From: a virus
Taxonomy: Duplodnaviria; Heunggongvirae; Uroviricota; Caudoviricetes
Reading direction: 5' to 3' (one strand)
IMG/VR virus record: IMGVR_UViG_2660238524_000003
DNA length: 40,665 nucleotides
Of this stretch, positions 25,858 through 39,603 are shown one piece after another (within the stretch, counting starts at the first letter, position 1; every line of letters starts with the position of its first letter). The notes below the pieces were generated by a model, which worked only from the letters and a program-made list of their open reading frames with translations, did no database searches and had not been told where the DNA came from. A program made the position numbers and the translations under genes.

Positions 25858-26903
25858 TGAGCAGAAAAAATAAAAAAGTGCGCATGAGTTCACGCATTGA
25901 TCTCGCTGATGCGCTCAGGAAAGAATCATCGCTCAGTGCATTCACATTTGATGGTCCTTATCGCCTGACCGGGCATGACCTGCTGGACAATATGTACTGT
26001 GCTGATAACGGGCGGTGGTATGAAACCCCGGTGGACTGGTACGGTCTGGCAAGAGCAGCCCGGCAAACGTCCTGGCATCAGTCTGCGCTTTACTTTAAGC
26101 GCAATGTATTACTCGGTTGCTACATCCCGCACCCGCTGCTTTCCCGGCAGGATTTCTCGGCGCTGGCGCTGGACTGGTTTGTGTTCGGTAACGCATTCCT
26201 TGAGCTTCGAAGCAATATGCTCGGCGAACCGCTTAAATTACGGCACGCCCTGGCGAAATACATGCGACGCGGAAGCGATCTTGAATCATGGTGGTATGTG
26301 CAGGATGGCAAGGACGCGTTTCAGTTTCGTCCTGGCAAAGTGTGCCACCTGATGAATCCGGATATTAACCAGGAAATCTACGGCATGCCGGAATATCTTG
26401 GCGCATTACTCTCGGCCAGCCTTTCTCATTCGGCGGACATGTTCAGAAAACTGTACTACGACAACGGATCCCACGCCGGGTGCATCATCTACATCGGTGC
26501 AGCGCAGGTAAACCGCGAAAGCATGGACTCCCTGAAAGAAACGCTACAGGGGGCACGTGGTGGTGGTGCGTTTAAAAACGTGCTCATTCATGCGCCCAAC
26601 GGGGGCAAAGAGGGGGTGCAAATTTTGCCGTTCCAGCAGATCACCGCAAAAGATGAATTCATGAATGTTAAGGCGGCATCCCGTGATGATGTGCTGGCTG
26701 CGCACCGCGTTCCGCCGCAACTGATGGGGGCGATGCCGGGCGAAAAAAGTGCGTTTGGCGATGTGGAGAAGGCAGCGCGGGTTTACGCAATTAACGAGCT
26801 GATGCCCGTTATGGAGGCTATGAAGCACATCAATGACTGGCTTGGCGAAGAGGTGATCCGTTTTAACTCTTATGCTCTTCTTGATGAAAAAACAGCCCCG
26901 TGA
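25857..26903 (+). CDS. portal protein Q
   Basis: 348 aa, size and position as P2 gpQ; TGATG overlap with P. Confidence 0.93.
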   Translation: MSRKNKKVRMSSRIDLADALRKESSLSAFTFDGPYRLTGHDLLDNMYCADNGRWYETPVDWYGLARAARQTSWHQSALYFKRNVLLGCYIPHPLLSRQDFSALALDWFVFGNAFLELRSNMLGEPLKLRHALAKYMRRGSDLESWWYVQDGKDAFQFRPGKVCHLMNPDINQEIYGMPEYLGALLSASLSHSADMFRKLYYDNGSHAGCIIYIGAAQVNRESMDSLKETLQGARGGGAFKNVLIHAPNGGKEGVQILPFQQITAKDEFMNVKAASRDDVLAAHRVPPQLMGAMPGEKSAFGDVEKAARVYAINELMPVMEAMKHINDWLGEEVIRFNSYALLDEKTAP

Positions 26904-26917
26904 TGGGGCTGTCCTTT

Positions 26918-27442
26918 TTACCAGAGTTGAACCATTTTCTGGGTGCCGTCAGGCTTGAGATTATCAATTTCAGAGAGAACGTAATATTGAATGGCTTCAC
27001 AAACGGTGGTGTAGGGTGAATTACCTTCTTTAAGTGGCACGATATTATTATTAACGCGAACCTGTATTTCATCGTTATACATTGCGATCGAAACAGGAGT
27101 GTGCACGAACGCGACTTCGCCAGGTGTGTCGTCAACCACCGTTTCAATACTAAAAGTCAGTTTTCGCTCATCATTGCTGCCCCGTGCTTTGGGGGTAGCG
27201 GCAGGGATCTGGGATAAAGGCATTCTGCGAAATCCTTCGGCTGCTTCCAGTCCGCATGAAACGTAATGCTGGCGATTACCGTCGCTATCTGTCCAGGTCT
27301 GTGATGGCAGCTCCAGCGAGATTTCATAAGCATCAACAATGCCCTGGGCAAGGCGTACAAGCGGGGTCAGATCTTCATTGCGGCGAAAGCTCTCCTTTAC
27401 CTGCTCCCGTTTTTCTCTTAACTGCTTGTAATTAATGACCAT
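26918..27442 (-). CDS. hypothetical protein (cargo between portal gene and cos-like region)
   Basis: 174 aa from ATG 27442 with GGAGG RBS 8 nt upstream; no family recognised. Confidence 0.6.
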   Translation of the reverse strand: MVINYKQLREKREQVKESFRRNEDLTPLVRLAQGIVDAYEISLELPSQTWTDSDGNRQHYVSCGLEAAEGFRRMPLSQIPAATPKARGSNDERKLTFSIETVVDDTPGEVAFVHTPVSIAMYNDEIQVRVNNNIVPLKEGNSPYTTVCEAIQYYVLSEIDNLKPDGTQKMVQLW

Positions 27443-27817
27443 AAGACAGCCTCCATTGATTTCTTTGCTCGTATTTTGCACTTATGAAGTATGGTCGGCA
27501 AGGTGCCGTATCGCTGACGCGCTTCGCTTGTCTGCTGCTTCGCCGGGGCATAAAAAATTTATGCCCCGGCTCTCCAGCTCCTGTATCAATCAGATAATTT
27601 CACGACGCCTTCCAGTTTATCGCCACCATCGACGGTCAGACTCTTACGCAATTCCACCGCGTTGACTGCATGTTCTCGCTGCCTCAGTGCGATTTTGACG
27701 GCCTTACCTTTCACCCCATCAAATCAAAAGCCCTCACGCCTTTTTCATGCTCAGCGTGAGAAATATGGCCATTCTGTTGTGTCTCTGCGACATCGTTCAG
27801 GGAATGCTATTTACCCC

Positions 27818-27835
27818 CTGAAACGCGGGCTGTTC
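27818..27835 (-). other. candidate cos-like sequence
   Basis: - strand GGTGACGGGGGAACAGCC loosely resembles the P2 cohesive end as recalled (GGCGAGGCGGGGAAAGCAC). Confidence 0.2.
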
Positions 27836-27941
27836 CCCCGTCACCTGCGCGCAGAAAAAGCGCGTTTTTTTGTGCACGCACGGATCCTTGACGGATCCAG
27901 CCGCCATGCGGGCCGGAAGGGTAAAAAGTCGTTCAAAAAAA

Positions 27942-27968
27942 TTGTGCAAATTTGTGCACTTTTGTGCA
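27942..27968 (+). repeat. three tandem 10-bp TTGTGCA repeats
   Basis: TTGTGCA at 27942, 27952 and 27962 (exact 10-bp phasing), just upstream of a TTGACC -35-like element. Confidence 0.7.
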
Positions 27969-27988
27969 GGTAAGCATGCCTATATATT

Positions 27989-28020
27989 TGACCGTGGCTT
28001 GCCTTTGATGTAGTTTATAC
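27989..28020 (+). promoter_or_regulatory. candidate promoter of cargo locus
   Basis: TTGACC followed ~17 nt later by TAGTTT/TATAC. Confidence 0.3.
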
Positions 28021-28068
28021 GTCACAAAAACCACAAAACGTGGTTATGATTTCTATGAGGGGGTTGAT

Positions 28069-28104
28069 ATGAAAAAAATGTATGATGAATTTGATGGTTT
28101 CTAA
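28069..28104 (+). CDS. 11-codon leader micro-ORF (MKKMYDEFDGF)
   Basis: GAGGGG RBS 6 nt upstream; followed 20 nt later by a strong terminator. Confidence 0.3.
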   Translation: MKKMYDEFDGF

Positions 28105-28123
28105 GCTACGTTGACCTCTAATG

Positions 28124-28151
28124 AGGCGGGGATTTGCTCCCCGCCTTTTTT
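28124..28151 (+). terminator. rho-independent terminator upstream of cargo gene
   Basis: gaggcgggga/tccccgcc 8-bp GC stem followed by T6. Confidence 0.7.
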
Positions 28152-28165
28152 ATGGATGAAATAGG

Positions 28166-28663
28166 ATGAACCCAATAACACTACAAATCATCAGCAATGC
28201 TATTGTTCTGCTTGGCGTTTTGGTTGCCATTGGAACCATTATCTACAATGTGCGTACCGCAAAAAAAACTCAAACGGCCAACTTTCTTTTTGAGAGTCGG
28301 CAAGATATGCAATATATAGAGTCATTGCATACCCTGAAACAAGTGCATCGTTCAGGCAAATCATTTCGTTCTTATGTTTTTCCTTGTGATGGTTGCATAA
28401 TAACAGATGAAGAAATGGCCGAGCGTCGAAAATTTCAATATATTTTAAATTTTTACGAGCGAGTTGCTGTAAGTATTCGTGAAGGTATTTATGATGAAAA
28501 AATGATAAAAAGAACATCTTACACAACAGTTGTAGAGACATATGATATTGCCGAGCCATTAATTAAAGCAATCAGAGAAAGCATTAATTCGGATACTACA
28601 TATCAAGAATTCGAATGGTTAGTAAGAAGATGGAAAGCTAATCCTTTACGGAAAAACAAATAA
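28166..28663 (+). CDS. membrane-anchored hypothetical protein (cargo gene 1)
   Basis: 165 aa; N-terminal TM helix (ITLQIISNAIVLLGVLVAIGTIIY) then a charged domain; AT-rich codon usage unlike the phage core. Confidence 0.7.
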   Translation: MNPITLQIISNAIVLLGVLVAIGTIIYNVRTAKKTQTANFLFESRQDMQYIESLHTLKQVHRSGKSFRSYVFPCDGCIITDEEMAERRKFQYILNFYERVAVSIREGIYDEKMIKRTSYTTVVETYDIAEPLIKAIRESINSDTTYQEFEWLVRRWKANPLRKNK

Positions 28664-28874
28664 TGTTTTACCCTTTAATTTACAAGTAACACAGGGGGAA
28701 GTGTGACACAGAATCCGTTTTCATTTTATGACTTTTTGGGCTATCTAATTCCAGGTGGGTTATTCCTGTTTATCCTTTTTTTGTTTTCTATTGAAATTAA
28801 CCCTGTTTATATAGAAGGTATTCTTAACCATATCCTGAAATATAAAGAAATAATAAGTGTATTTATATATGTGG

Positions 28875-28882
28875 TATTAATC
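28875..28882. repeat. IS1 target-site duplication (left copy)
   Basis: TATTAATC immediately left of the IS1 end. Confidence 0.85.
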
Positions 28883-28897
28883 GGTAATGACTCCAAC

Positions 28898-29401
28898 TTA
28901 CTGATAGTGTTTTATGTTCAGATAATGCCCGATGACCTTGTCATGCAGCTCCACCGATTTTGAGAACGACAGTGACTTCCGTCCCAGCCTTGCCAGATGT
29001 TGTCTCAGATTCAGGTTATGCCGCTCAATTCGCTGAGTGTAACGCTTGCTGATTACGTGCAGCTTTCCCTTCAGGCGGGATTCATACAGCGGCCAGCCAT
29101 CCGTCATCCATACCACGACCTCAAAGGCCGACAGCAGGCTTAGAAGACGCTCCAGTGTGGCCAGAGTGCGTTCACCGAATACGTGCGCAACAACCGTCTT
29201 CCGGAGCCTGTCATACGCGTAAAACAGCCAGCGCTGGCGCGATTTAGCCCCGACGTATCCCCACTGTTCGTCCATTTCCGCGCAGACGATGACGTCACTG
29301 CCCGGCTGTATGCGCGAGGTTACCGACTGCGGCCTGAGTTTTTTAAATGGCGGAAAATCGTGTTGAGGCCAACGCCCATAATGCGGGCGGTTGCCCGGCA
29401 T
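28898..29401 (-). CDS. insB: IS1 transposase InsB
   Basis: 167-aa ORF recognised as IS1 InsB; made as an InsAB' frameshift fusion. Confidence 0.9.
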
Positions 29402-29595
29402 CCAACGCCATTCATGGCCATATCAATGATTTTCTGGTGCGTACCGGGTTGAGAAGCGGTGTAAGTGAACTGCAGTTGCCATGTTTTACGGCAGTGAGAG
29501 CAGAGATAGCGCTGATGTCCGGCGGTGCTTTTGCCGTTACGCACCACCCCGTCAGTAGCTGAACAGGAGGGACAGCTGATAGAAACAGAAGCCAC
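29320..29595 (-). CDS. insA: IS1 InsA
   Basis: 91-aa ORF ([23 protein letters not shown]...) recognised as IS1 InsA. Confidence 0.9.
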
Positions 29596-29650
29596 TGGAG
29601 CACCTCAAAAACACCATCATACACTAAATCAGTAAGTTGGCAGCATCACC

Positions 29651-29658
29651 TATTAATC
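29651..29658. repeat. IS1 target-site duplication (right copy)
   Basis: TATTAATC immediately right of the IS1 end. Confidence 0.85.
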
Positions 29659-29721
29659 GTTCTATCATATATTTCAGGTCACTTCATATCTATTCTATCA
29701 TCCTGTTTAATTGAAAAATAC

Positions 29722-30321
29722 ATGAACAGTAAACTTGGGTATCCTTCAATTTATCTGTTTTCTAAAAGAAGCTCCCTGAAAATAAAACGACATAATACTA
29801 AGTTCAGTATAGTTAATTTTATTCGTGGAGTTTTTTTATTTCCTGTATCAGCTTTTGATAAAGCAGAACATCATAAAACCACACTGCATTCTATACTTAT
29901 TAAAGTCTTTTGGCCGCAAATACGAGATGGTTATATAAATGTTTTTTCTGTATCTACGCTATATCGACGTAAGGGCTTGAGGGGCGATCTTTTTCGCCTT
30001 GCTTATCATTATGTGTATGAACATTCTAAAAATCATCAGGTGAAAATGCAAAACTATGTTGCTTTGTATGGTTTTTGTAGAAACATTACATTTGTTTTTC
30101 TCGCTTCAGTCTGGTTGCTTATGTTCCTGCTCCTTCTATCCTTTTTAATAGATATAAATATCAGACTGTTACCTTTTTGTTTTCTTCTCTTGTTTTGTAT
30201 TGCTGCATCCCGAGTATTTTATTATGGTTTTGTTAAGTATTATCGCCGCTATTCTCTTGAGGTTTTAATGGCATTTGCGGTACTTCAGCACGATAAAAAA
30301 ACTTCGGCAATTTCATCATGA
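29722..30321 (+). CDS. C-terminal ORF of the IS1-split membrane protein gene
   Basis: 199-aa ORF from an internal in-frame ATG; C-terminal TM helices; no obvious SD. Confidence 0.5.
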   Translation: MNSKLGYPSIYLFSKRSSLKIKRHNTKFSIVNFIRGVFLFPVSAFDKAEHHKTTLHSILIKVFWPQIRDGYINVFSVSTLYRRKGLRGDLFRLAYHYVYEHSKNHQVKMQNYVALYGFCRNITFVFLASVWLLMFLLLLSFLIDINIRLLPFCFLLLFCIAASRVFYYGFVKYYRRYSLEVLMAFAVLQHDKKTSAISS

Positions 30322-30332
30322 TTTGAAACATT

Positions 30333-30355
30333 GGCACCCTGTTAGCAAGGGTGCC
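30333..30355. terminator. stem-loop between convergent cargo and partition genes
   Basis: ggcaccct/agggtgcc 8-bp stem. Confidence 0.35.
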
Positions 30356-30404
30356 AGAATGATGTGTTGGTCTGTATTTTATTAGTTCACATACAATTAT
30401 CAGA

Positions 30405-30719
30405 TTATTCTGGGAATAAGGTCTGAATATTCTTTTTTATTTTATAAAAATTGCATTCAACTCCGCTAGGCTGATTATCCTGGTATGTTTCCTTGATGCT
30501 AACGGTATTGAAGGGGAGGTTGTCCTCTGGCCATTCGGCCATCCAGTAGGCAAATGCTGGGTTGCGCTTTATGAGCGCTAGCCCAGCCAGAAAGGCCGCG
30601 CGTTGCGCGCGGCTGCGTTCGGAGGCTGGCAGGCTATCGAGGTAATTGCACGCCTCCTGTTCACTCTTGACGGCGGCGGGCTTCAGATAGAAACTTATCC
30701 GTCTGGTTGGTGTCGTCAT
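30405..30719 (-). CDS. ParR/StbB-like centromere-binding adaptor
   Basis: 104 aa from ATG 30719 (AAGGAG RBS), directly downstream of the ParM-like gene; ...LDSLPASERSRAQRAAFLAGLAL... resembles R1 ParR as recalled. Confidence 0.65.
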   Translation of the reverse strand: MTTPTRRISFYLKPAAVKSEQEACNYLDSLPASERSRAQRAAFLAGLALIKRNPAFAYWMAEWPEDNLPFNTVSIKETYQDNQPSGVECNFYKIKKNIQTLFPE

Positions 30720-30723
30720 TGGT

Positions 30724-31683
30724 TTACTCCTTGTCCATTGCGTACAGCCCATTAACCAGAGCAAACTGTGGCACCCCGTCCGCGATGAAAGTCGCATTAA
30801 CTCCGCAGACTTCGCGGATAGCGGGTGCCACAATCTCCGCCCCTCCACCGACAACCATCACCCGCCCGTAACCCGAAAAAACCGCCAGCGCGCGGATCAC
30901 GCGTTGTTTCAGTGTTTCTTCCTTTTCACGAATAACCGCCATCAGGCTGGCGTAATGCGCGTCATTGTGGATGTGCTGGCGCAGCCAGGCTTCATCATGG
31001 CGATGTTCGATAATGGTATTGGCGATGTGGTGACTGGTGCGCATACCGTTAGTGGCCATCACCGACAGTACGGCATCGGCCATCAGGGAAACGCCTACGT
31101 GTGGATCGCAAAACACCTGGCTGATACCTGCCAGTTGCCCTTGAACCTTTGCCACATCCAGCGTGGTTCCGCCTAAATCCACAATCAGCAGGGATTCAAA
31201 CGGACTCATGTCAGCCAGTGCTTTAAAGCCAGCCGGAATGGATTCAGGCATAACCCGCACGTTACGGATAGTGAATGCTTCGCCGTTCTGGTATTCCACC
31301 GGGCGCATAACGTTCGCTTTTTTGCGGTTGATGTTGGCCATGTCCGGCTGTGCGTTTGTGTCGAAATACTCGCTCAGTGGCAGGGTGACAACCACATCCA
31401 CCTCCTGTGGCGTGATGCCTGATTTGACCAGCGCGTGATGAATGGCGATTACATTCACATCGCTGTACTGGTATTGCGTGTCGGTCGTCTGGACAAAGCG
31501 ATCGCTAACCGGATCAAAACCATAGCGCACGCCATCAAGCATGTAGTTCGCGGGCTGCATGCCACCGAACGGCGCAGACCATTCCGACTTGAAGCTGTTC
31601 GGGCTGATGGCGTTGCGGCGTTCGCCATTCTCAGTCCATGCCAGCTTGATGTTGGTGGAGCCGTCGTCGATACAAATTTTCAT
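30724..31683 (-). CDS. ParM/StbA-like actin-family partition ATPase
   Basis: 319 aa; N-terminal MKICIDDGSTNIKLAW and later blocks (VMPESIPAG, IVDLGGTT, VGGGAE) match the ParM/StbA actin fold. Confidence 0.85.
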   Translation of the reverse strand: MKICIDDGSTNIKLAWTENGERRNAISPNSFKSEWSAPFGGMQPANYMLDGVRYGFDPVSDRFVQTTDTQYQYSDVNVIAIHHALVKSGITPQEVDVVVTLPLSEYFDTNAQPDMANINRKKANVMRPVEYQNGEAFTIRNVRVMPESIPAGFKALADMSPFESLLIVDLGGTTLDVAKVQGQLAGISQVFCDPHVGVSLMADAVLSVMATNGMRTSHHIANTIIEHRHDEAWLRQHIHNDAHYASLMAVIREKEETLKQRVIRALAVFSGYGRVMVVGGGAEIVAPAIREVCGVNATFIADGVPQFALVNGLYAMDKE

Positions 31684-31714
31684 GTCGCTTTTCCTTATGT
31701 TGATTAATTAATCG

Positions 31715-31826
31715 TTTACGGGATTCTGAAATCCCGTTTTTGCCTGTTTTGTGCGCGCTTCATATATCGCTGCGCGTTTTTTGCTCATTTACGGGATTCG
31801 TAAGTCCCGTTTCTGTCTGTTTTTTG
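31715..31826. repeat. two ~39-bp palindrome-containing direct repeats upstream of the ParM-like gene
   Basis: TTTACGGGATTCTGAAATCCCGTTT (31715-31753, intergenic) and TTTACGGGATTCGTAAGTCCCGTTT (31788-31826, within the 3' end of gene A), 73 bp apart. Confidence 0.6.
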
Positions 31827-34582
31827 TTTCCACTGGTCAGGCCACCCCGCAGCAGGTCTGCTTTGCGGCTGGCGCGTTCAGTGGTTTCACTGATTCTCTG
31901 TGCGTGCTCTGCGTCGCGGATGGCGCGCAGCATGTCAGAAAGCACGGTAACGGGTGTTTTCATGGTGTTCTGGCCCTGCTGAAGTGTGGATGCCAGGCGT
32001 GCGGCGGCTTCAGGGTCTGATGCCCCCAGCTGTGCCAGATAGCTGGCGACCGGGTTATGGCGGATCTCCGTGCTGCTTACGCCATGATTACGGCTCAGGC
32101 GCTGCCAGAGCTGCGTGATTCGGCTGTCCGGGCGGGTATCCGGTTTGCGTACAATTTCAAATCCCTGCGGTGCAATGATGCTGCCGTCAACGTACAGACT
32201 GCCGCCCCGTAACAGGTGCTGCATCTGTTGTTCACCGATATGCAGGCCGAGAGATTCAGCAGACTCCCGCCATTCTTTAGCGAGTAATTCGTGGTTATCA
32301 GGCAAAGGCCGCTGCTGTTTGCGGCTCTGTGTCCAGCTCTGCATTTCATCGCTGCTGTTTTTTGCCTGTTTGTCACGAAGCGAACGCATCAGCGCCCGGC
32401 GTTCGTGTCGTTTCAGTGAGCGCATCCATTCGTTCACTTCAACGCCGTCAGGGAGCTGCGGCCACGGTGCTGGCCGTTCTTCCGGCTGTTCTGTCCCGTT
32501 GTTGTCCGTTTCCTGTACACGGGGACAGTTATTGCCACGAGTCCAAGGGGCGGCAGGGCCGCCCTGAAGGTCAAAACCATTTTCGCGGGCGCTGTCTTCC
32601 GCTTCCGGTTTACGTCTTACCAGCTTCCAGTTATCCGGATGCGTGCACACACGGGAGGATTCCCCGATGAGTGGTGACCAGATCCCGTAAATCTGTACGC
32701 TCTGTTCGCCGTAATCGTTCAGCTCATCTGCGAGGTCGTAGGCGGTGCGAATCAGGTAGTCCTTGCGTGGAACAAGCACGCCACCCTGTTTTTCAATGTA
32801 GGTGGCAAAACACCCGGCATCGGCGGCAGCGAGTACCGCATCCATTGCATCATCTTTCAGCCGTTGCGGGCCTTCCGGATTGCGTGCCATCTGGCTGGCA
32901 AGGCGGCGCAGTTCACGCCACACCTGACGGGAGGGGATGCCAAAGAACTGGAACTGACGGACCCGGTGAAGGCGCGCCCAGCCGATGGCGCGCTCCACGC
33001 TCTCGGCCATTGATTTTCCGGTTTCGTGGTCCACGCGTGGCTTGCCCGTTTTCGGGTCGATGCCATCCACGGCGCGGCTGTCCAGGTTCTTTCCGATGTA
33101 GGTGGCGATGTAGCTGGTTGGCGTGCCTTTTGAGCCGTCGACATACTCCACCTTAAAGCGCGGAGTAATATCATTGCCCAGCTCGTGGCGGTCTTCCTGA
33201 ATGGCAATATCGCGGGTATGGGACACAATGGTGTCGATTTCTTCCGGATGTGCAAAGACCATCATATGCCAGTGCACGGTGCCGTCATGATGAGGCTCCA
33301 CCGTGCGGATGCCATACCAGCGCAGGCCGTCGCGGTTCAGTTTTTTGCGGACCGCCGCAAAAAACGTGTTAACCAGGTAATCGCTGGAGTCGCGCATTGT
33401 GGCCCCGTTCCATTTGGGATTCGGATGACCGTTCTCCGTTGTGGCGTGGTATTTTGACGGGCAGGTGACAGTCAGAAACACCGCTTTGTCGCCACGGGCT
33501 TCGGCCAGAAGTTCCAGTCCCTTCATGGTGGCCATCATTTCTGCCTTACGGTGAACCGGGTTACTTACTCCCGCGTAATACACTGTCTCGAGATCAATCG
33601 TGAACCCGTCTTCATTTTCCAGCATGAAACTTTTCAGGAAATCGCGTGTTTTCTCGCGCTGTGCGCGAAACTCGCTTAACGCGTCCTGGCTCAGATAGGG
33701 TGATGTTTTTCTGGAAACCAGACAGGCGGCGCGGAGTTGTTCTTCTCTCCACTCGCAACGTAACAGCCACAGTTTGCGTTTCCACCATTCCGCACAGGTC
33801 AGGCGAAGGATTGCGCCCGGCAGCAGCTCCGTGTCCGGTTCGTTCCTCCGGTCTTTGTCTGTTGTCAGTGCGTCATAATGTGGAGGCATGGCGTGCAGGT
33901 GTAACGCCATGCGGGCCAGCATCTGATACGCCTTCAGGGTTACATCCATGGTCAGCTCGCCATCGGTCGCGCCAAAGCCATCGCAGAGTTTTTCGAAGGT
34001 GCTGCTGAACATCGCCGCCGTCATGGTGGCCAGCGTCTGTATCTGGTGTTTGTTGAGCTGCGGCAGGTAAAGCAAATCGTCCAGGCGTTCGCGTCCGGCA
34101 AGGGAGCGATAACCCGGTGTCAGCCAGCGTCCGTCAGTGCTATCCAGACGTTCGAATATTTTGCGCAGGGTTCCGCGTGCATAGCGTTCCGCCTGCCAGC
34201 TCTTTTTGCCTTTCCGGCGATCGGCTTCCTGTTTTTTGCGCAGGAAGGAGAGGTGGCGAATAAGCGGATCGCGCAGATAGGACGGCAGCAGGCGCAGCGA
34301 GGCCATGGCTTCATCCACCGCGCCACGTGCCTGTTTTCTGGCGTCTCCTGCCAGTGTGATGGTTTTGTCCTGTTTTTCCTGTGCGTCCAGGCTTTTATTA
34401 ATCAGGTTGCCCAGCGGCGTGGCTGAGAACGCCGCATCAGCCATTTCCTGGCGGCGCTCGTTCTCTGCCCGGTAGGCATCCAGCCAGGAGGAAAGCGCGG
34501 ATTCAGGAGCGGGGATCCCCGTTCCTTCACGCCCCACTGCGTGGCGCGGTTGTTGCCAGTCCCTGAGGTACTCTGCCGTCAT
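31760..34582 (-). CDS. replication initiation endonuclease A (rolling-circle)
   Basis: 940 aa; H-x-H metal motif (HWHMMVF) and position as in P2-like phages. Confidence 0.88.
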   Translation of the reverse strand: MTAEYLRDWQQPRHAVGREGTGIPAPESALSSWLDAYRAENERRQEMADAAFSATPLGNLINKSLDAQEKQDKTITLAGDARKQARGAVDEAMASLRLLPSYLRDPLIRHLSFLRKKQEADRRKGKKSWQAERYARGTLRKIFERLDSTDGRWLTPGYRSLAGRERLDDLLYLPQLNKHQIQTLATMTAAMFSSTFEKLCDGFGATDGELTMDVTLKAYQMLARMALHLHAMPPHYDALTTDKDRRNEPDTELLPGAILRLTCAEWWKRKLWLLRCEWREEQLRAACLVSRKTSPYLSQDALSEFRAQREKTRDFLKSFMLENEDGFTIDLETVYYAGVSNPVHRKAEMMATMKGLELLAEARGDKAVFLTVTCPSKYHATTENGHPNPKWNGATMRDSSDYLVNTFFAAVRKKLNRDGLRWYGIRTVEPHHDGTVHWHMMVFAHPEEIDTIVSHTRDIAIQEDRHELGNDITPRFKVEYVDGSKGTPTSYIATYIGKNLDSRAVDGIDPKTGKPRVDHETGKSMAESVERAIGWARLHRVRQFQFFGIPSRQVWRELRRLASQMARNPEGPQRLKDDAMDAVLAAADAGCFATYIEKQGGVLVPRKDYLIRTAYDLADELNDYGEQSVQIYGIWSPLIGESSRVCTHPDNWKLVRRKPEAEDSARENGFDLQGGPAAPWTRGNNCPRVQETDNNGTEQPEERPAPWPQLPDGVEVNEWMRSLKRHERRALMRSLRDKQAKNSSDEMQSWTQSRKQQRPLPDNHELLAKEWRESAESLGLHIGEQQMQHLLRGGSLYVDGSIIAPQGFEIVRKPDTRPDSRITQLWQRLSRNHGVSSTEIRHNPVASYLAQLGASDPEAAARLASTLQQGQNTMKTPVTVLSDMLRAIRDAEHAQRISETTERASRKADLLRGGLTSGNKKQTETGLTNPVNEQKTRSDI

Positions 34583-34588
34583 AGTGAT

Positions 34589-34954
34589 TTACTTCGTCAT
34601 GCCATTCAGGGTGTCGCGGCAGACTGTAGCCAGCCGCTGAATTTCCAGCACGGTGTCTTCTGTGTCGGCATGGCGATGTGTGATGCGGATGCTGTCGGCA
34701 ATCACATCGACGATTGCAGAGGATGGGCGCTGGTAAATGCCAATAACGGACGGGGTGCCACCTTCAATGCGGTAAAGCCTGTAATTTCCCTCGTGGCTGT
34801 CAATCATGTAGCGACCATCAATAACAATCTTTCCGTCAGCGAGCTGCGGTACAGGCAGGGATTTCAGGTACATGTCATAACGATCACGCACGCGAGCGGC
34901 AAGATCACGTTCTGTATTGAGCAGGTATTCAAGAAAGTCGTTGGCGAGAATCAT
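34589..34954 (-). CDS. hypothetical early protein
   Basis: 121 aa, AAGAGGA RBS, immediately upstream of A. Confidence 0.55.
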   Translation of the reverse strand: MILANDFLEYLLNTERDLAARVRDRYDMYLKSLPVPQLADGKIVIDGRYMIDSHEGNYRLYRIEGGTPSVIGIYQRPSSAIVDVIADSIRITHRHADTEDTVLEIQRLATVCRDTLNGMTK

Positions 34955-35026
34955 TGCGGCAATCCTCTTGTTACAGATGTGCGAAGGCCTCCCGCCGCAA
35001 GGTGCAGGAAAGGCCCGGAACAGGAA

Positions 35027-35257
35027 TTAATGGAGTTTGTTTTGCTGCTGGATGAGCTGTTGAAGCTCGTGCAGATCATCCGCCAGATAGCTGAAAACAG
35101 AGGCGGAATAAATGTTTGATAGTGCGTGGCTGCGCTCATGCAGCATATTGATGTGCATGATTTGCGCGACGCGTGATGCGCGGGAAAGTCTGCGGTTGAT
35201 TTCAGTCTGGATGTGACGACGCTCCGCGATAGCGCGGTGCTGTTTGCGGTTTGCCAT
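35027..35257 (-). CDS. hypothetical early protein (basic, 76 aa)
   Basis: ORF with AAGGGG-type RBS embedded in the adjacent repeat element. Confidence 0.5.
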   Translation of the reverse strand: MANRKQHRAIAERRHIQTEINRRLSRASRVAQIMHINMLHERSHALSNIYSASVFSYLADDLHELQQLIQQQNKLH

Positions 35258-35579
35258 GGTGTGGCCCCTTGTGTAGTAAGTTGTGAAAACTCACCATCCA
35301 GAGCTGCGAAACTGTGGGTGGCGAGACGTACGAGGTTCGCAGTACCGGCTACACAAGAACCCGGCCCGACCGAAGTCGGCCCCGTACGCCCCGCCATAAT
35401 TCTGACGCGAAAAAAACGTGGCAATACAGTACGCACAAAAAAACCGCTGGCGCGGTTGTGCGCTTGTGTAGTCAGCAGGCTGCGAAACCCGGCACCCGTT
35501 TTATGAGGTGCAGCGGAAATGTAACCTGACTGATTGCGGCATGGCAAGCGGTTTTTTTGTGTGTGCATGCTCTGGTTTC
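35258..35579 (-). ncRNA. structured non-coding element with nested complementary repeats
   Basis: About 320 bp without a credible ORF. CTTGTGTAG and GCTGCGAA(A)C each occur twice direct (35268/35463; 35303/35479) and once inverted (35349-35357; 35335-35342). Confidence 0.4.
35433..35457 (-). terminator. intra-operon rho-independent terminator
   Basis: aaccgc-tggc-gcggtt hairpin followed on the - strand by UUUUUUU. Confidence 0.6.
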
Positions 35580-37522: not shown

Positions 37523-37873
37523 TTATAAATCAGCCTGTTTAATAAAACTTTGCCCGTGAAGCAGACGATCAACCGTGCGAAGTGCTTCGTATAATGTGAA
37601 ATCCTGCCCGAACTGATTGTCGCCGTTGCTCAGTGCAAAAATGCGGTTTCCGGTAAATGGGTTGCGCTGGCATCTGTGAACCACGATTCCTGCTTTTTCA
37701 ATCAGCCAAGTGTGTTCACCAATTTGTTTTACTGGGTAGCCATCCGGCGTTGCGTGTGTTTCGCTCAGGCTGTAGCGAGAGTTGCTACGTGATGCACTGG
37801 TAGCGAAACGGTTAGCATGGCGTTCCGCACCGTTGCGGAAGCGCTGCTGTGAAGAATTGCGCTGTAGTTTCAT
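37523..37873 (-). CDS. hypothetical early protein
   Basis: 116 aa ORF. Confidence 0.5.
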   Translation of the reverse strand: MKLQRNSSQQRFRNGAERHANRFATSASRSNSRYSLSETHATPDGYPVKQIGEHTWLIEKAGIVVHRCQRNPFTGNRIFALSNGDNQFGQDFTLYEALRTVDRLLHGQSFIKQADL

Positions 37874-38010
37874 ATTAAAACTCTGTACCTTCGGTAAGGT
37901 GTACTCGTGTCACCTTGTATTGATTTGTGGTATTTTTTTTGTGTGTCTAGGACTTGGACTGGCCGGTTCAGGTCCTGGCTTATGTTTAATTAAATTGTTA
38001 AGAGGTTTTC

Positions 38011-38202
38011 ATGTCAGAAGATAAAAAAGTTGTTAATTTGTTGAGTGAACTTAGTGCTGCTCTGGATAACATTAACCCTCCCAGGGTAAAAACGACGGGT
38101 GATAAAGACGCATTAAACACAGAGATTCATATATTACTGGCGTTAGTAACTGACAAAATTCAGCGTAAATACCCACCTGTCACACAACTGGTTGATTTTT
38201 AA
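38011..38202 (+). CDS. hypothetical 63-aa protein on the opposite strand
   Basis: AAGAGG RBS 6 nt upstream of ATG; hairpin right after its stop. Confidence 0.45.
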   Translation: MSEDKKVVNLLSELSAALDNINPPRVKTTGDKDALNTEIHILLALVTDKIQRKYPPVTQLVDF

Positions 38203-38208
38203 TTTGAT

Positions 38209-38631
38209 TTATGCCGGGCTGCTCCCGGCATCTTCTAGCTGCCATAATGTCTCGTCACCTGATAGAGCAAAACGAAATGAGTGAAGTATATCCCCCCGAG
38301 AGAAGCTCACGGCTACAGCTGCGGGAAAGTCAAATATAATCCCACCTTCATTTTTAAAACGATTACGCAATTGATAGGCTATCGGTTTGATTTGTGCAGG
38401 AAGAGTATCTATATCTCTTCCATTGACAACAGAATCTTTGTTTTCAAGTACTGATTTAGCGATTAGATATAGATGCCAGTAACTGGTTACAATTGTTACT
38501 CCTGTGATGTGTCGTAAATTAATTGCAATTCGTCCGTTATTATGTTTTTCCGCAAGGTATTTCAGGTTATCAATTAATGCTTGGTCATTTTTTGAAATAG
38601 TTATTGTGAAATCTGACGTGTTTGTTTTCAT
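38209..38631 (-). CDS. hypothetical early protein
   Basis: 140 aa from ATG 38631 (GAGG RBS); the longer track ORF to 38874 overlaps the upstream gene out of frame. Confidence 0.45.
   Translation of the reverse strand: MKTNTSDFTITISKNDQALIDNLKYLAEKHNNGRIAINLRHITGVTIVTSYWHLYLIAKSVLENKDSVVNGRDIDTLPAQIKPIAYQLRNRFKNEGGIIFDFPAAVAVSFSRGDILHSFRFALSGDETLWQLEDAGSSPA
38211..38231. terminator. hairpin between convergent genes
   Basis: atgccggg-ctgct-cccggcat 8-bp stem; weak U tracts. Confidence 0.35.
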
Positions 38632-38635
38632 ACGA

Positions 38636-39157
38636 TTAGTTGCCTCTGTTGTTTCTGAGTTGGTCCAGTTTTGAGCTTCTGCCTGTATAAACTCGCTTAC
38701 CGTTAATGGTCTGGCAGTCTTCTTTATTAGCTGGAGAGAACTTCCTTTTCTGGCGGTCATACGTCCAGTAACTTTTCCAGTTGTGCCATTCTGGGGGCTC
38801 GTGCTCTGGTAGCTCATCAGCCAACTTGTCCCACTCTTTGGCGTTAAACCACCATACTCCGTCTGAGTTTTCATCTTCCGGGTTTGTGCGCGTCTTGTGT
38901 CCCGGCATTTGACCGCGATGAATGGCTACGCGCAGTGCAGATTTTGTTAGCCCAATATATGCCGCGCCTTTTTCCAGAGAGCAAAGCCCGGCGATCGGAC
39001 CATCCAGCCGCAAAGTCGCTCCTTTTTTGTAGGAACGCTTTTTCTTGTTTTCTTCGTGCTCGTCGTCGTTGGCGGCATCAATGGATCCGCTGAGTGCGTC
39101 ACTTTCCTGAAGTGGTTGGTGGTCAGATAACTCTTTATCGGCAATGAAGTCCCGCAT
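38636..39157 (-). CDS. first early-operon gene, possible Cox/Apl-like HTH regulator
   Basis: AAGAGGA RBS; helix-turn-helix-like segment (AAYIGLTKSALRVAIHRGQMPG); divergent from the repressor gene. Longer than P2 Cox, so function is inferred from position. Confidence 0.5.
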   Translation of the reverse strand: MRDFIADKELSDHQPLQESDALSGSIDAANDDEHEENKKKRSYKKGATLRLDGPIAGLCSLEKGAAYIGLTKSALRVAIHRGQMPGHKTRTNPEDENSDGVWWFNAKEWDKLADELPEHEPPEWHNWKSYWTYDRQKRKFSPANKEDCQTINGKRVYTGRSSKLDQLRNNRGN

Positions 39158-39216
39158 TTGTTATCCTCTTGCGTTGGTGCGCTTGTCGCGCCTTGTGATG
39201 GTTTGTTTTGGCTTGT

Positions 39217-39240
39217 AAAGATAACCAAAAGGTTATCTTT
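39217..39240. promoter_or_regulatory. operator-like palindrome in divergent promoter region
   Basis: AAAGATAACC-AAAA-GGTTATCTTT perfect 10-bp arms; additional GGTTATCTT half-site at 39264-39272. Confidence 0.55.
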
Positions 39241-39261
39241 GTGCGAGAGGTTAATACTCAA

Positions 39262-39603
39262 ATGGTTATCTTGTCAATAGACTACGCAAAAAAGTTACGT
39301 CAGATACGTAAGGCGGAAGGGTTAACACAAAAGCAGTTTGCGGATATTACTGGGTTGTCTTTGGCAACCATAAGGAATTACGAATCGGGGCAAAAGAACG
39401 CTAGAGCAAAAATCGTTGAGGCGGTTCTGCAAGTCGATCGCTTTGAAAAATACATGCTGTGGCTAATAAAAGATAAGACGCTACCTGTCGCCGGGCAGAT
39501 TGCTCCGGCTCTCTCTCTTGATGGATCTATTCAGTCGGAGGGCGATCAGGTTTCAATCGGTATTACCCAAAAATCACCCCGATCAGGCCGCAATGTTGGC
39601 TGA
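39262..39603 (+). CDS. immunity repressor, HTH XRE-family
   Basis: ...LRQIRKAEGLTQKQFADITGLSLATIRNYESGQ... helix-turn-helix; start ATG 39262 with GAGAGG RBS. Confidence 0.8.
   Translation: MVILSIDYAKKLRQIRKAEGLTQKQFADITGLSLATIRNYESGQKNARAKIVEAVLQVDRFEKYMLWLIKDKTLPVAGQIAPALSLDGSIQSEGDQVSIGITQKSPRSGRNVG

Follow-up and report, generated by a model that had tools for sequence, protein, structure and literature searches.

The stretch of DNA analysed here (IMG/VR record IMGVR_UViG_2660238524_000003; 40,665 nucleotides (nt), all of which we call the window) is an almost complete prophage of the P2 family, P88/Xuanwuvirus type, integrated beside dmsA. Among the early genes of this prophage, which lie on the - strand, there is a small open reading frame (ORF) on the + strand, orf63; an earlier note on this DNA had described its 63 codons and its AAGAGG Shine-Dalgarno (SD) sequence correctly and had taken it for a moron or a regulator. 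From comparisons with other prophages, we conclude that orf63 is a genuine protein-coding gene, and that it is not a lone insert but one half of a conserved convergent pair with the early gene orf140. By the same comparisons, the pair behaves as a mobile, dispensable, horizontally exchanged accessory cassette just after cox. The coordinates of all these elements are collected in Table 1.

Taken alone, a reading frame of this length says little: dozens of ORFs of like size are listed in the window, and 63 codons in AT-rich DNA are insignificant. The frame cannot extend upstream because an in-frame TAA (37999-38001) stands just ahead of the ATG. Both GenBank and RefSeq already hold orf63 as a hypothetical protein, and three deposited phage genomes, 100% identical over the region, give the 192-nt + strand ORF the same label. 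Among GenBank phages, only three near-identical E. coli records carry the cassette. A word-indexed search of 5.8 billion proteins, together with the family libraries, matched orf63 only to copies at least 96% identical and orf140 only to copies at least 98% identical.

More distant relatives do exist. An exhaustive HMMER search of 1.84 billion representative proteins with the product of orf140 gave one remote homologue (P0014; 138 amino acids (aa), E 2.7e-7, 33% identity to Orf140 over 126 aa). Its Salmonella loci carry, in this order, int-C-cox-(58 aa)-orf138 and then, convergent with it, an ORF of 62 aa whose product is 40% identical to Orf63. Further clades of the large gene were found on two IMG/VR contigs: L034, where orf136 faces a 60-aa small homologue, and L046, where orf146 faces one of 62 aa behind a 192-aa Cox related to the Cox of the window. 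Two scans of genome contigs gave no hits, and one metagenome scan gave the E. coli type only, so that no clade was added to these.

Across the four deep clades (E. coli, Salmonella, L034 and L046), the small proteins are 60-63 aa long and 25-45% identical between clades, and the large proteins are 24-36% identical. The small proteins share the features M[SN]ED.K[IV][IV].LL, A[LI] and KYP, and all clades but one also have a PPR loop; their genes keep the start context, the SD sequence, the position and a nearly equal length (60-63 aa). Within Salmonella, the small gene has a ratio of non-synonymous to synonymous substitution rates (dN/dS) of 0.31-0.38, and the large gene one of 0.27-0.58. It is the conservation of protein and architecture in distant prophages that lifts orf63 above chance, and because remote homologues of the same length occur in four clades and dN/dS is below 1, we regard it as a genuine gene. 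The earlier note had named a lack of conservation in related prophages as what would refute it; the family, which came to light through Orf140 and the genomic context of its homologue, speaks against such a lack.

The conservation extends to the arrangement of the two genes. Each homologue of either gene adjoins a homologue of the other in convergent orientation, the stop codons overlapping or lying 6 nt apart (6 nt in the window, where orf140 converges on orf63). In every clade the genes are on opposite strands, the large gene always in the sense of the early operon. The small and large proteins also diverge in parallel (r = 0.93 over 10 pairs). In one Salmonella variant (L022, 842-1054), the small gene is without its stop and gives a 70-aa product.

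The cassette is present in 270 of 5426 complete E. coli genomes (~5%), including sequence type ST131 and UTI89/NU14, always on the chromosome, and is at least 99% identical across the E. coli alleles examined; many Salmonella prophages carry it too. On the Salmonella and IMG/VR contigs it is found with differing repressors, integrases and host flanks. The pair sits after cox-like genes of 67+68, 86, 104, 109, 135, 167, 173 (the window) and 192 aa, which amounts to at least six cox-like architectures as judged by gene lengths and Pfam patterns. Its base composition deviates as well, with a GC content of 0.382 for 37951-38635 against 0.49-0.50 in the flanking genes and 0.52 in the window.

Close relatives do without the cassette. 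In phage P88, cox is followed by the DUF4761 gene after 37 nt, and other Xuanwuvirus phages align to the window only as far as ~37880-37890. The E. coli genome PRO_A-1504-6M-A_ESBL (L054, 1537-2094), which has the same C repressor, lacks exactly 37951-38638 and with it both genes: ...GTGTCTAG is joined to GTTGCCTCTG at a TAG microhomology, and since the cox stop is removed, Cox grows from 173 to 185 aa by 12 extra residues. We also considered this locus as an ancestral empty site, in which case the promoter described below would lie outside the cassette. This was rejected, a deletion being more parsimonious because Cox in L054 is without its stop and ends in 12 odd extra residues and because the -10 motif is conserved in unrelated Salmonella intergenic regions. 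The many cox contexts, the low GC content and the absence from P88 and L054 together argue for a mobile accessory cassette.

Two further observations concern the distribution of the block. A second genome among the 272 matching E. coli genomes is also without most of it. UTI89 (L053) and strain 1190 have the same cox-orf140-orf63 block and a strongly diverged C allele and operator region, with a recombination breakpoint near 39187, inside the Pe/Pc switch region (39187-39603; L010 and L053 compared).

The earlier note supposed a promoter of orf63's own that opposes the early operon, and this is very probable. The intergenic stretch ahead of the small gene exists in four types that have diverged from one another (E. 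coli; Salmonella A; Salmonella B, found also in L034; and L046), and besides the SD sequence only TGTG[G/C/T]TAT[T/G/C]TT is common to all of them, 66-74 nt before the ATG. This motif reads as a sigma-70 extended -10 element; in the form TGTGnTATnTT it occurs once in the 40.6-kb window, with 0.30 occurrences expected. The predicted transcription start, set 7 nt past the hexamer, falls near 37943. The extended -10 suggests that the promoter is independent of an activator. By the gene coordinates, it faces C and int, both on the + strand further downstream. A T run at 37932-37940, overlapping and following the -10 hexamer, is T6, T7 or T8 among the alleles, and such changes in length would move the transcription start relative to the leader stem-loop.

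The C-operator repeats (AAAGATAACC-N4-GGTTATCTTT and GGTTATCTT) were found only at 39217-39272 and nowhere near the orf63 promoter; their absence there would indirectly favour expression from the repressed prophage. The likely C operators lie between cox and C, as a perfect palindrome AAAGATAACC-AAAA-GGTTATCTTT at 39217-39240 and an extra GGTTATCTT at 39263-39271. Control of the orf63 promoter by C was rejected as unlikely, the operators being confined to that region and the cassette being joined to many immunity types.

The predicted mRNA would be bracketed by two stem-loops. One stands at its 5' end in every intergenic type (-11.6 to -20.5 kcal/mol), and in the window it begins 2-4 nt from the predicted end. 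In E. coli, its folding energy is -20.5 to -21.8 kcal/mol on the + strand versus -7.8 on the - strand (z = -2.8); since four of its 14 pairs are G.U, it is predicted to form only on + strand RNA. When we slid a 40-nt fold over ~790 nt of each of five cassette variants, every variant showed a leader stem-loop, at -63 to -73 relative to the ATG. No other structure in E. coli or Salmonella B is as strong as this leader and the stem-loop past the stop codon, and each of the two ranks third or higher in Salmonella A, L034 and L046. The SD sequence between the leader and the ATG reads TAGAGG or AAGGGG in other E. coli alleles and AAAGGG or AAAGGA, at the same spacing, in Salmonella-type cassettes. 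No RNA family of Rfam matched 37600-38700.

The second stem-loop follows the small gene by 8-22 nt in all clades, with differing sequences, and falls in non-conserved C-terminal tail codons of the large gene. The hairpin that the earlier note placed behind the ORF is thus present, but it lies within the final codons of orf140 (stop 38209-38211) and has a weak U tail; we would call it a weak terminator in E. coli. In Salmonella and L046 the hairpins have G.U pairs on the small-gene strand, and the one in L034 has a U-rich tail, UUCCUUUU. None has a U tract on the - strand, that of the early operon, where the E. coli hairpin is followed by an A-rich run. It is therefore no intrinsic terminator of the early transcript, which none of these hairpins would stop, and a bidirectional terminator was rejected on the same ground. 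A 22-nt imperfect direct repeat (77%), CTGGCTTATGTTTAATTAAATT at 37975-37996 and CTGGTTGATTTTTAATTTGATT at 38188-38209, flanks the small ORF, each copy adjoining one of the two stem-loops; it may be due to chance in AT-rich DNA.

The small protein is predicted to be soluble and acidic (isoelectric point (pI) 4.6-5.6 across clades), with no hydrophobic segment (maximum 19-residue Kyte-Doolittle value 0.3-0.8). AlphaFold2, given a six-sequence alignment, modelled Orf63 as two helices (residues 3-21 and 29-53) with a predicted local distance difference test score (pLDDT) of 72.6; a Foldseek comparison of this model with PDB and BFVD gave no match. Orf140, likewise soluble by prediction, is near-neutral to acidic (pI 5.2-6.9), and its AlphaFold2 model from the single sequence was unusable (pLDDT 42). 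Profile searches of PDB gave nothing significant (best E 0.63 and 0.059), and PADLOC gave no defence-system match for either protein. We found no paper citing the RefSeq protein identifiers, the phage records being merely listed in surveys, and no description of the orf63/orf140 pair in the literature. For the regulator proposed in the earlier note we found no positive evidence: Orf63 matched no DNA-binding domain, Orf140 matched neither a helix-turn-helix nor any other DNA-binding model, and the promoter carries no C operator.

How the pair might work is suggested by its geometry. Between orf140 and the DUF4761 gene lie 335 nt (37874-38208) with no - strand ORF and with stops in all three - strand frames, which the early transcript has to cross, antisense to orf63, before it reaches DUF4761 and gpA. 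Because of this crossing, activity of Pe and expression of orf63 must interfere; interference of this kind is documented for the convergent promoters pR and pE of the P2-like phage 186 (PMC7708051). As to the 335-nt gap itself, its - strand has a mild excess of C over G (71 C, 54 G), and being untranslated it could expose the early transcript to Rho-dependent polarity ahead of the replication genes.

We give an even chance to the following reading: orf63 is a self-contained unit that the lysogen expresses from a promoter independent of immunity and that the firing of Pe shuts off, and its acidic product binds a protein and is functionally coupled to the early-lytic Orf140. In the lysogen, C would repress Pe and keep orf140 silent, while orf63 would be transcribed from its own extended -10 promoter into an mRNA of ~290 nt, which the stem-loops at both ends should make stable. 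The small two-helix protein translated from it would act by binding another protein. Upon infection or derepression, transcription from Pe would run antisense through the whole of orf63 toward the replication genes and would shut orf63 off by polymerase collision, promoter occlusion and formation of RNA duplexes. The same transcript would yield Orf140, which probably either works together with Orf63 or opposes it. The cassette would then be a phase-switched pair, one gene serving a lysogen function (e.g. exclusion or host modulation) and the other being its early-lytic counterpart, or the reverse.

Several observations weigh against this reading. No match in Pfam, PHROG, NCBIfam, PADLOC or PDB points to a function for Orf63, Orf140 or their family members. 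The -35 region is poor, and a simple consensus scan called no + strand promoter here; the E. coli 3' hairpin, with its tail CUUCU, scores a z of only -1.5 against shuffled sequences. In one Salmonella locus (L014, 3737-4123), other sequence has taken the place of the small gene's promoter and 5' half, leaving a 40-aa ORF beside an intact orf138, so not every lysogen requires the pairing. Copies that are truncated or frameshifted also occur, though rarely, among the E. coli genes, and there is no purifying signal within E. coli: over six alleles, orf63 has three variable sites (two non-synonymous, one synonymous), and four of the five in orf140 are at codon positions 1 or 2. The adjacent DUF4761 gene has 43 variable sites in these alleles, mostly at third codon positions. 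As the cassette alleles differ by at most 1%, they hold too few substitutions for a selection test, and E. coli alone cannot prove selection on orf63.

The rival that survives best places the main function in transcription and RNA, not in the protein. The lysogen's orf63 transcript would pair with leaky Pe transcripts, or polymerases would collide, or both, so that cox-orf140 would be uncoupled from the downstream replication genes and lysogeny stabilised. Such a brake is suggested by the head-on geometry ~1.25 kb downstream of Pe, by the 335 untranslated nt antisense to orf63, by the stem-loops that bracket and should stabilise the mRNA, and by the convergent-promoter interference established for pR and pE of 186 (PMC7708051). 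However, a cis-antisense RNA needs no conserved frame, and in this family the amino-acid sequence is conserved despite diverged DNA, together with the ORF length and the SD sequence, at a dN/dS below 1. The brake also leaves the constant company of the orf140 family unexplained, and the cassette is dispensable, close relatives managing without it. We consider it unlikely as the main function; as a second function it can coexist with a protein that acts in the lysogen.

Convergent cis-antisense pairs with overlapping 3' ends are familiar from par/Fst RNA I-RNA II of pAD1, lambda oop/cII and P22 sar/ant. Their transcripts converge, overlap at the 3' ends and share a junction stem-loop, as in the cassette. 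Those pairs have either a non-coding RNA as the small partner or a hydrophobic peptide as the toxin. In the cassette, by contrast, both partners appear to be soluble proteins under purifying selection, and Rfam gave no match.

A toxin-antitoxin or abortive-infection pair, in which Orf140 would inhibit growth when Pe fires and Orf63 would be an acidic antidote pre-loaded in the lysogen, is in our judgement still less probable. The smaller protein is indeed acidic and strictly linked to a larger partner, the two lie on a mobile, AT-rich cassette in a prophage, and their geometry predicts expression in opposite phases. Type II systems on prophages share the small acidic protein, the tight linkage and the mobile element; they differ in that the cassette genes are convergent and not co-transcribed as a bicistronic autoregulated operon, and in that the cassette has no DNA-binding antitoxin domain or known toxin fold. 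No model of a toxin, an antitoxin or a defence system matches either protein, Orf140 too is near-neutral to acidic, and a toxin would have to lie in the phage's own essential early operon. One natural variant, L014, even keeps the large gene beside a truncated, promoterless small one. With type I systems, defined by a hydrophobic peptide and a non-coding RNA, only the convergent 3' overlap agrees. On these features, the cassette fails to qualify as either type.

A third alternative, which we hold to be very improbable, sees the promoter as an analogue of the establishment or maintenance promoters 186 pE and lambda pRE, its transcript running through orf63, antisense to orf140 and cox, into C and int, with Orf140 acting like CII. 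Like pE and pRE, which oppose pR, the cassette promoter lies within the early lytic unit, faces the repressor and integrase genes and would give interfering transcription (PMC7708051 for the comparison with 186). That the E. coli hairpin is a weak terminator would also suit this reading. Directly after cox, orf140 holds the place that cII has after apl in the gene order of 186. The promoters pE and pRE, however, are activated by CII, do not serve a separate ORF and run on into the repressor gene. The cassette promoter, by contrast, has an extended -10, as activator-independent promoters typically do; it precedes a conserved ORF with an SD sequence, and a stem-loop stands right past the stop in every clade, with a U-rich tail in L034. 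It also lies downstream, not upstream, of the candidate gene in the cII position, and Orf140 has no match to a DNA-binding model. Moreover, the cassette accompanies many unrelated immunity modules, and its close relatives lacking it still lysogenise.

That orf63 might have arisen by chance, or by misannotation, in AT-rich inserted DNA and yield no product is hardly credible: direct searches yielding near-identical copies only, rare frameshifted variants, no purifying signal within E. coli and many like-sized ORFs in the region would suit it, and yet the 25-45% identical homologues in three other clades, with the same length, start context, SD sequence and position and a dN/dS below 1, effectively refute it.

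Among known systems, the cassette appears to work most like a phage moron. Morons are autonomous additional genes of prophages, lambdoid ones among them, and the lysogenic-conversion genes old, tin and fun(Z) of P2 belong to this group. It shares with morons an AT-rich insert, present or absent at the same site in close relatives and dispensable, and it has its own promoter-like and terminator-like elements; expression from a repressed prophage is plausible. The moron reading of the earlier note therefore fits the low GC content, the presence/absence polymorphism and the bracketing stem-loops, and of its interpretation this part is supported, the promoter being very probable. The cassette is unlike other morons in that its small gene stands head-on within the early operon, an essential one, not between late genes or in gpA-gpQ, and is always paired with a partner from the invaded operon; it has no homology to old, tin or fun or to PADLOC models.

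The P2 defence hotspot is defined as gpA-gpQ, next to cos (Rousset et al. 2022, PMC9122126). The cassette differs from the systems found there in its place between cox and the early genes, and PADLOC matched none of its products. In this prophage, the gpA-gpQ hotspot (26900-31700) contains a DUF4760 protein (28166-28663), an IS1 transposase ORF (28898-29401) and a ParM/StbA + StbB-like plasmid-partition pair (30405-31683), which is unusual cargo in an integrated P2-like prophage. On the early side, a 76-aa - strand gene (35027-35257), called 'derepression protein' in other records, overlaps an Ash-family remnant or ORF (34951-35568) that is annotated differently between records.

Table 1. Positions of the orf63/orf140 cassette, its predicted signals and the neighbouring genes in the window.
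Feature	Position	Strand	Remarks
gpA	31760-34582	-	early side, followed by a run of small - strand early genes
DUF4761 gene	37523-37873	-	adjoins the orf63 region on the left
Predicted sigma-70 extended -10, TGTGGTATTTT	37926-37936	+	TG 37928-37929, hexamer TATTTT 37931-37936
Leader stem-loop	37947-37978	+	14 pairs, including 4 G.U
Dispensable cassette (leader stem-loop, orf63, 3' hairpin, orf140)	37951-38638		bounded by the L054 deletion
Shine-Dalgarno sequence AAGAGG	38000-38005	+	5 nt before the ATG
orf63 coding sequence	ATG 38011 to TAA 38200-38202	+	63 aa, 192 nt including the stop
orf140	38209-38631	-	140 aa; second gene of the early (Pe) operon; starts 4 nt past the cox stop
3' stem-loop, ATGCCGGG-CTGCT-CCCGGCAT	38211-38231	+	8-bp GC-rich stem, -13.7 kcal/mol, tail CUUCU
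cox	38636-39157	-	Cox family, 173 aa; immediately ahead of orf140 in the early operon
C repressor gene	39262-39603	+	right of cox
int (integrase gene)	39658 onward	+	right of C

The pair may even represent an undescribed class of phase-switched prophage module, in which a small protein restricted to the lysogen and a head-on early-lytic protein act as effector and neutraliser; we offer this tentatively and think it doubtful. If it is true, a superinfection-exclusion, anti-satellite or host-modulating activity, for example, would be disarmed by the prophage on induction, and convergent transcription would be the built-in switch between the two phases. With a small gene flanked by stem-loops and head-on to the operon of its partner, the layout would be a compact natural example of expression switching through convergent transcription. 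The cassette occurs in ~5% of complete E. coli genomes, among them those of the pandemic ST131 and of the model uropathogen UTI89. For the P2 family, it shows the cox-proximal start of the early operon to be a second site of cargo exchange between immunity types, besides the gpA-gpQ hotspot.

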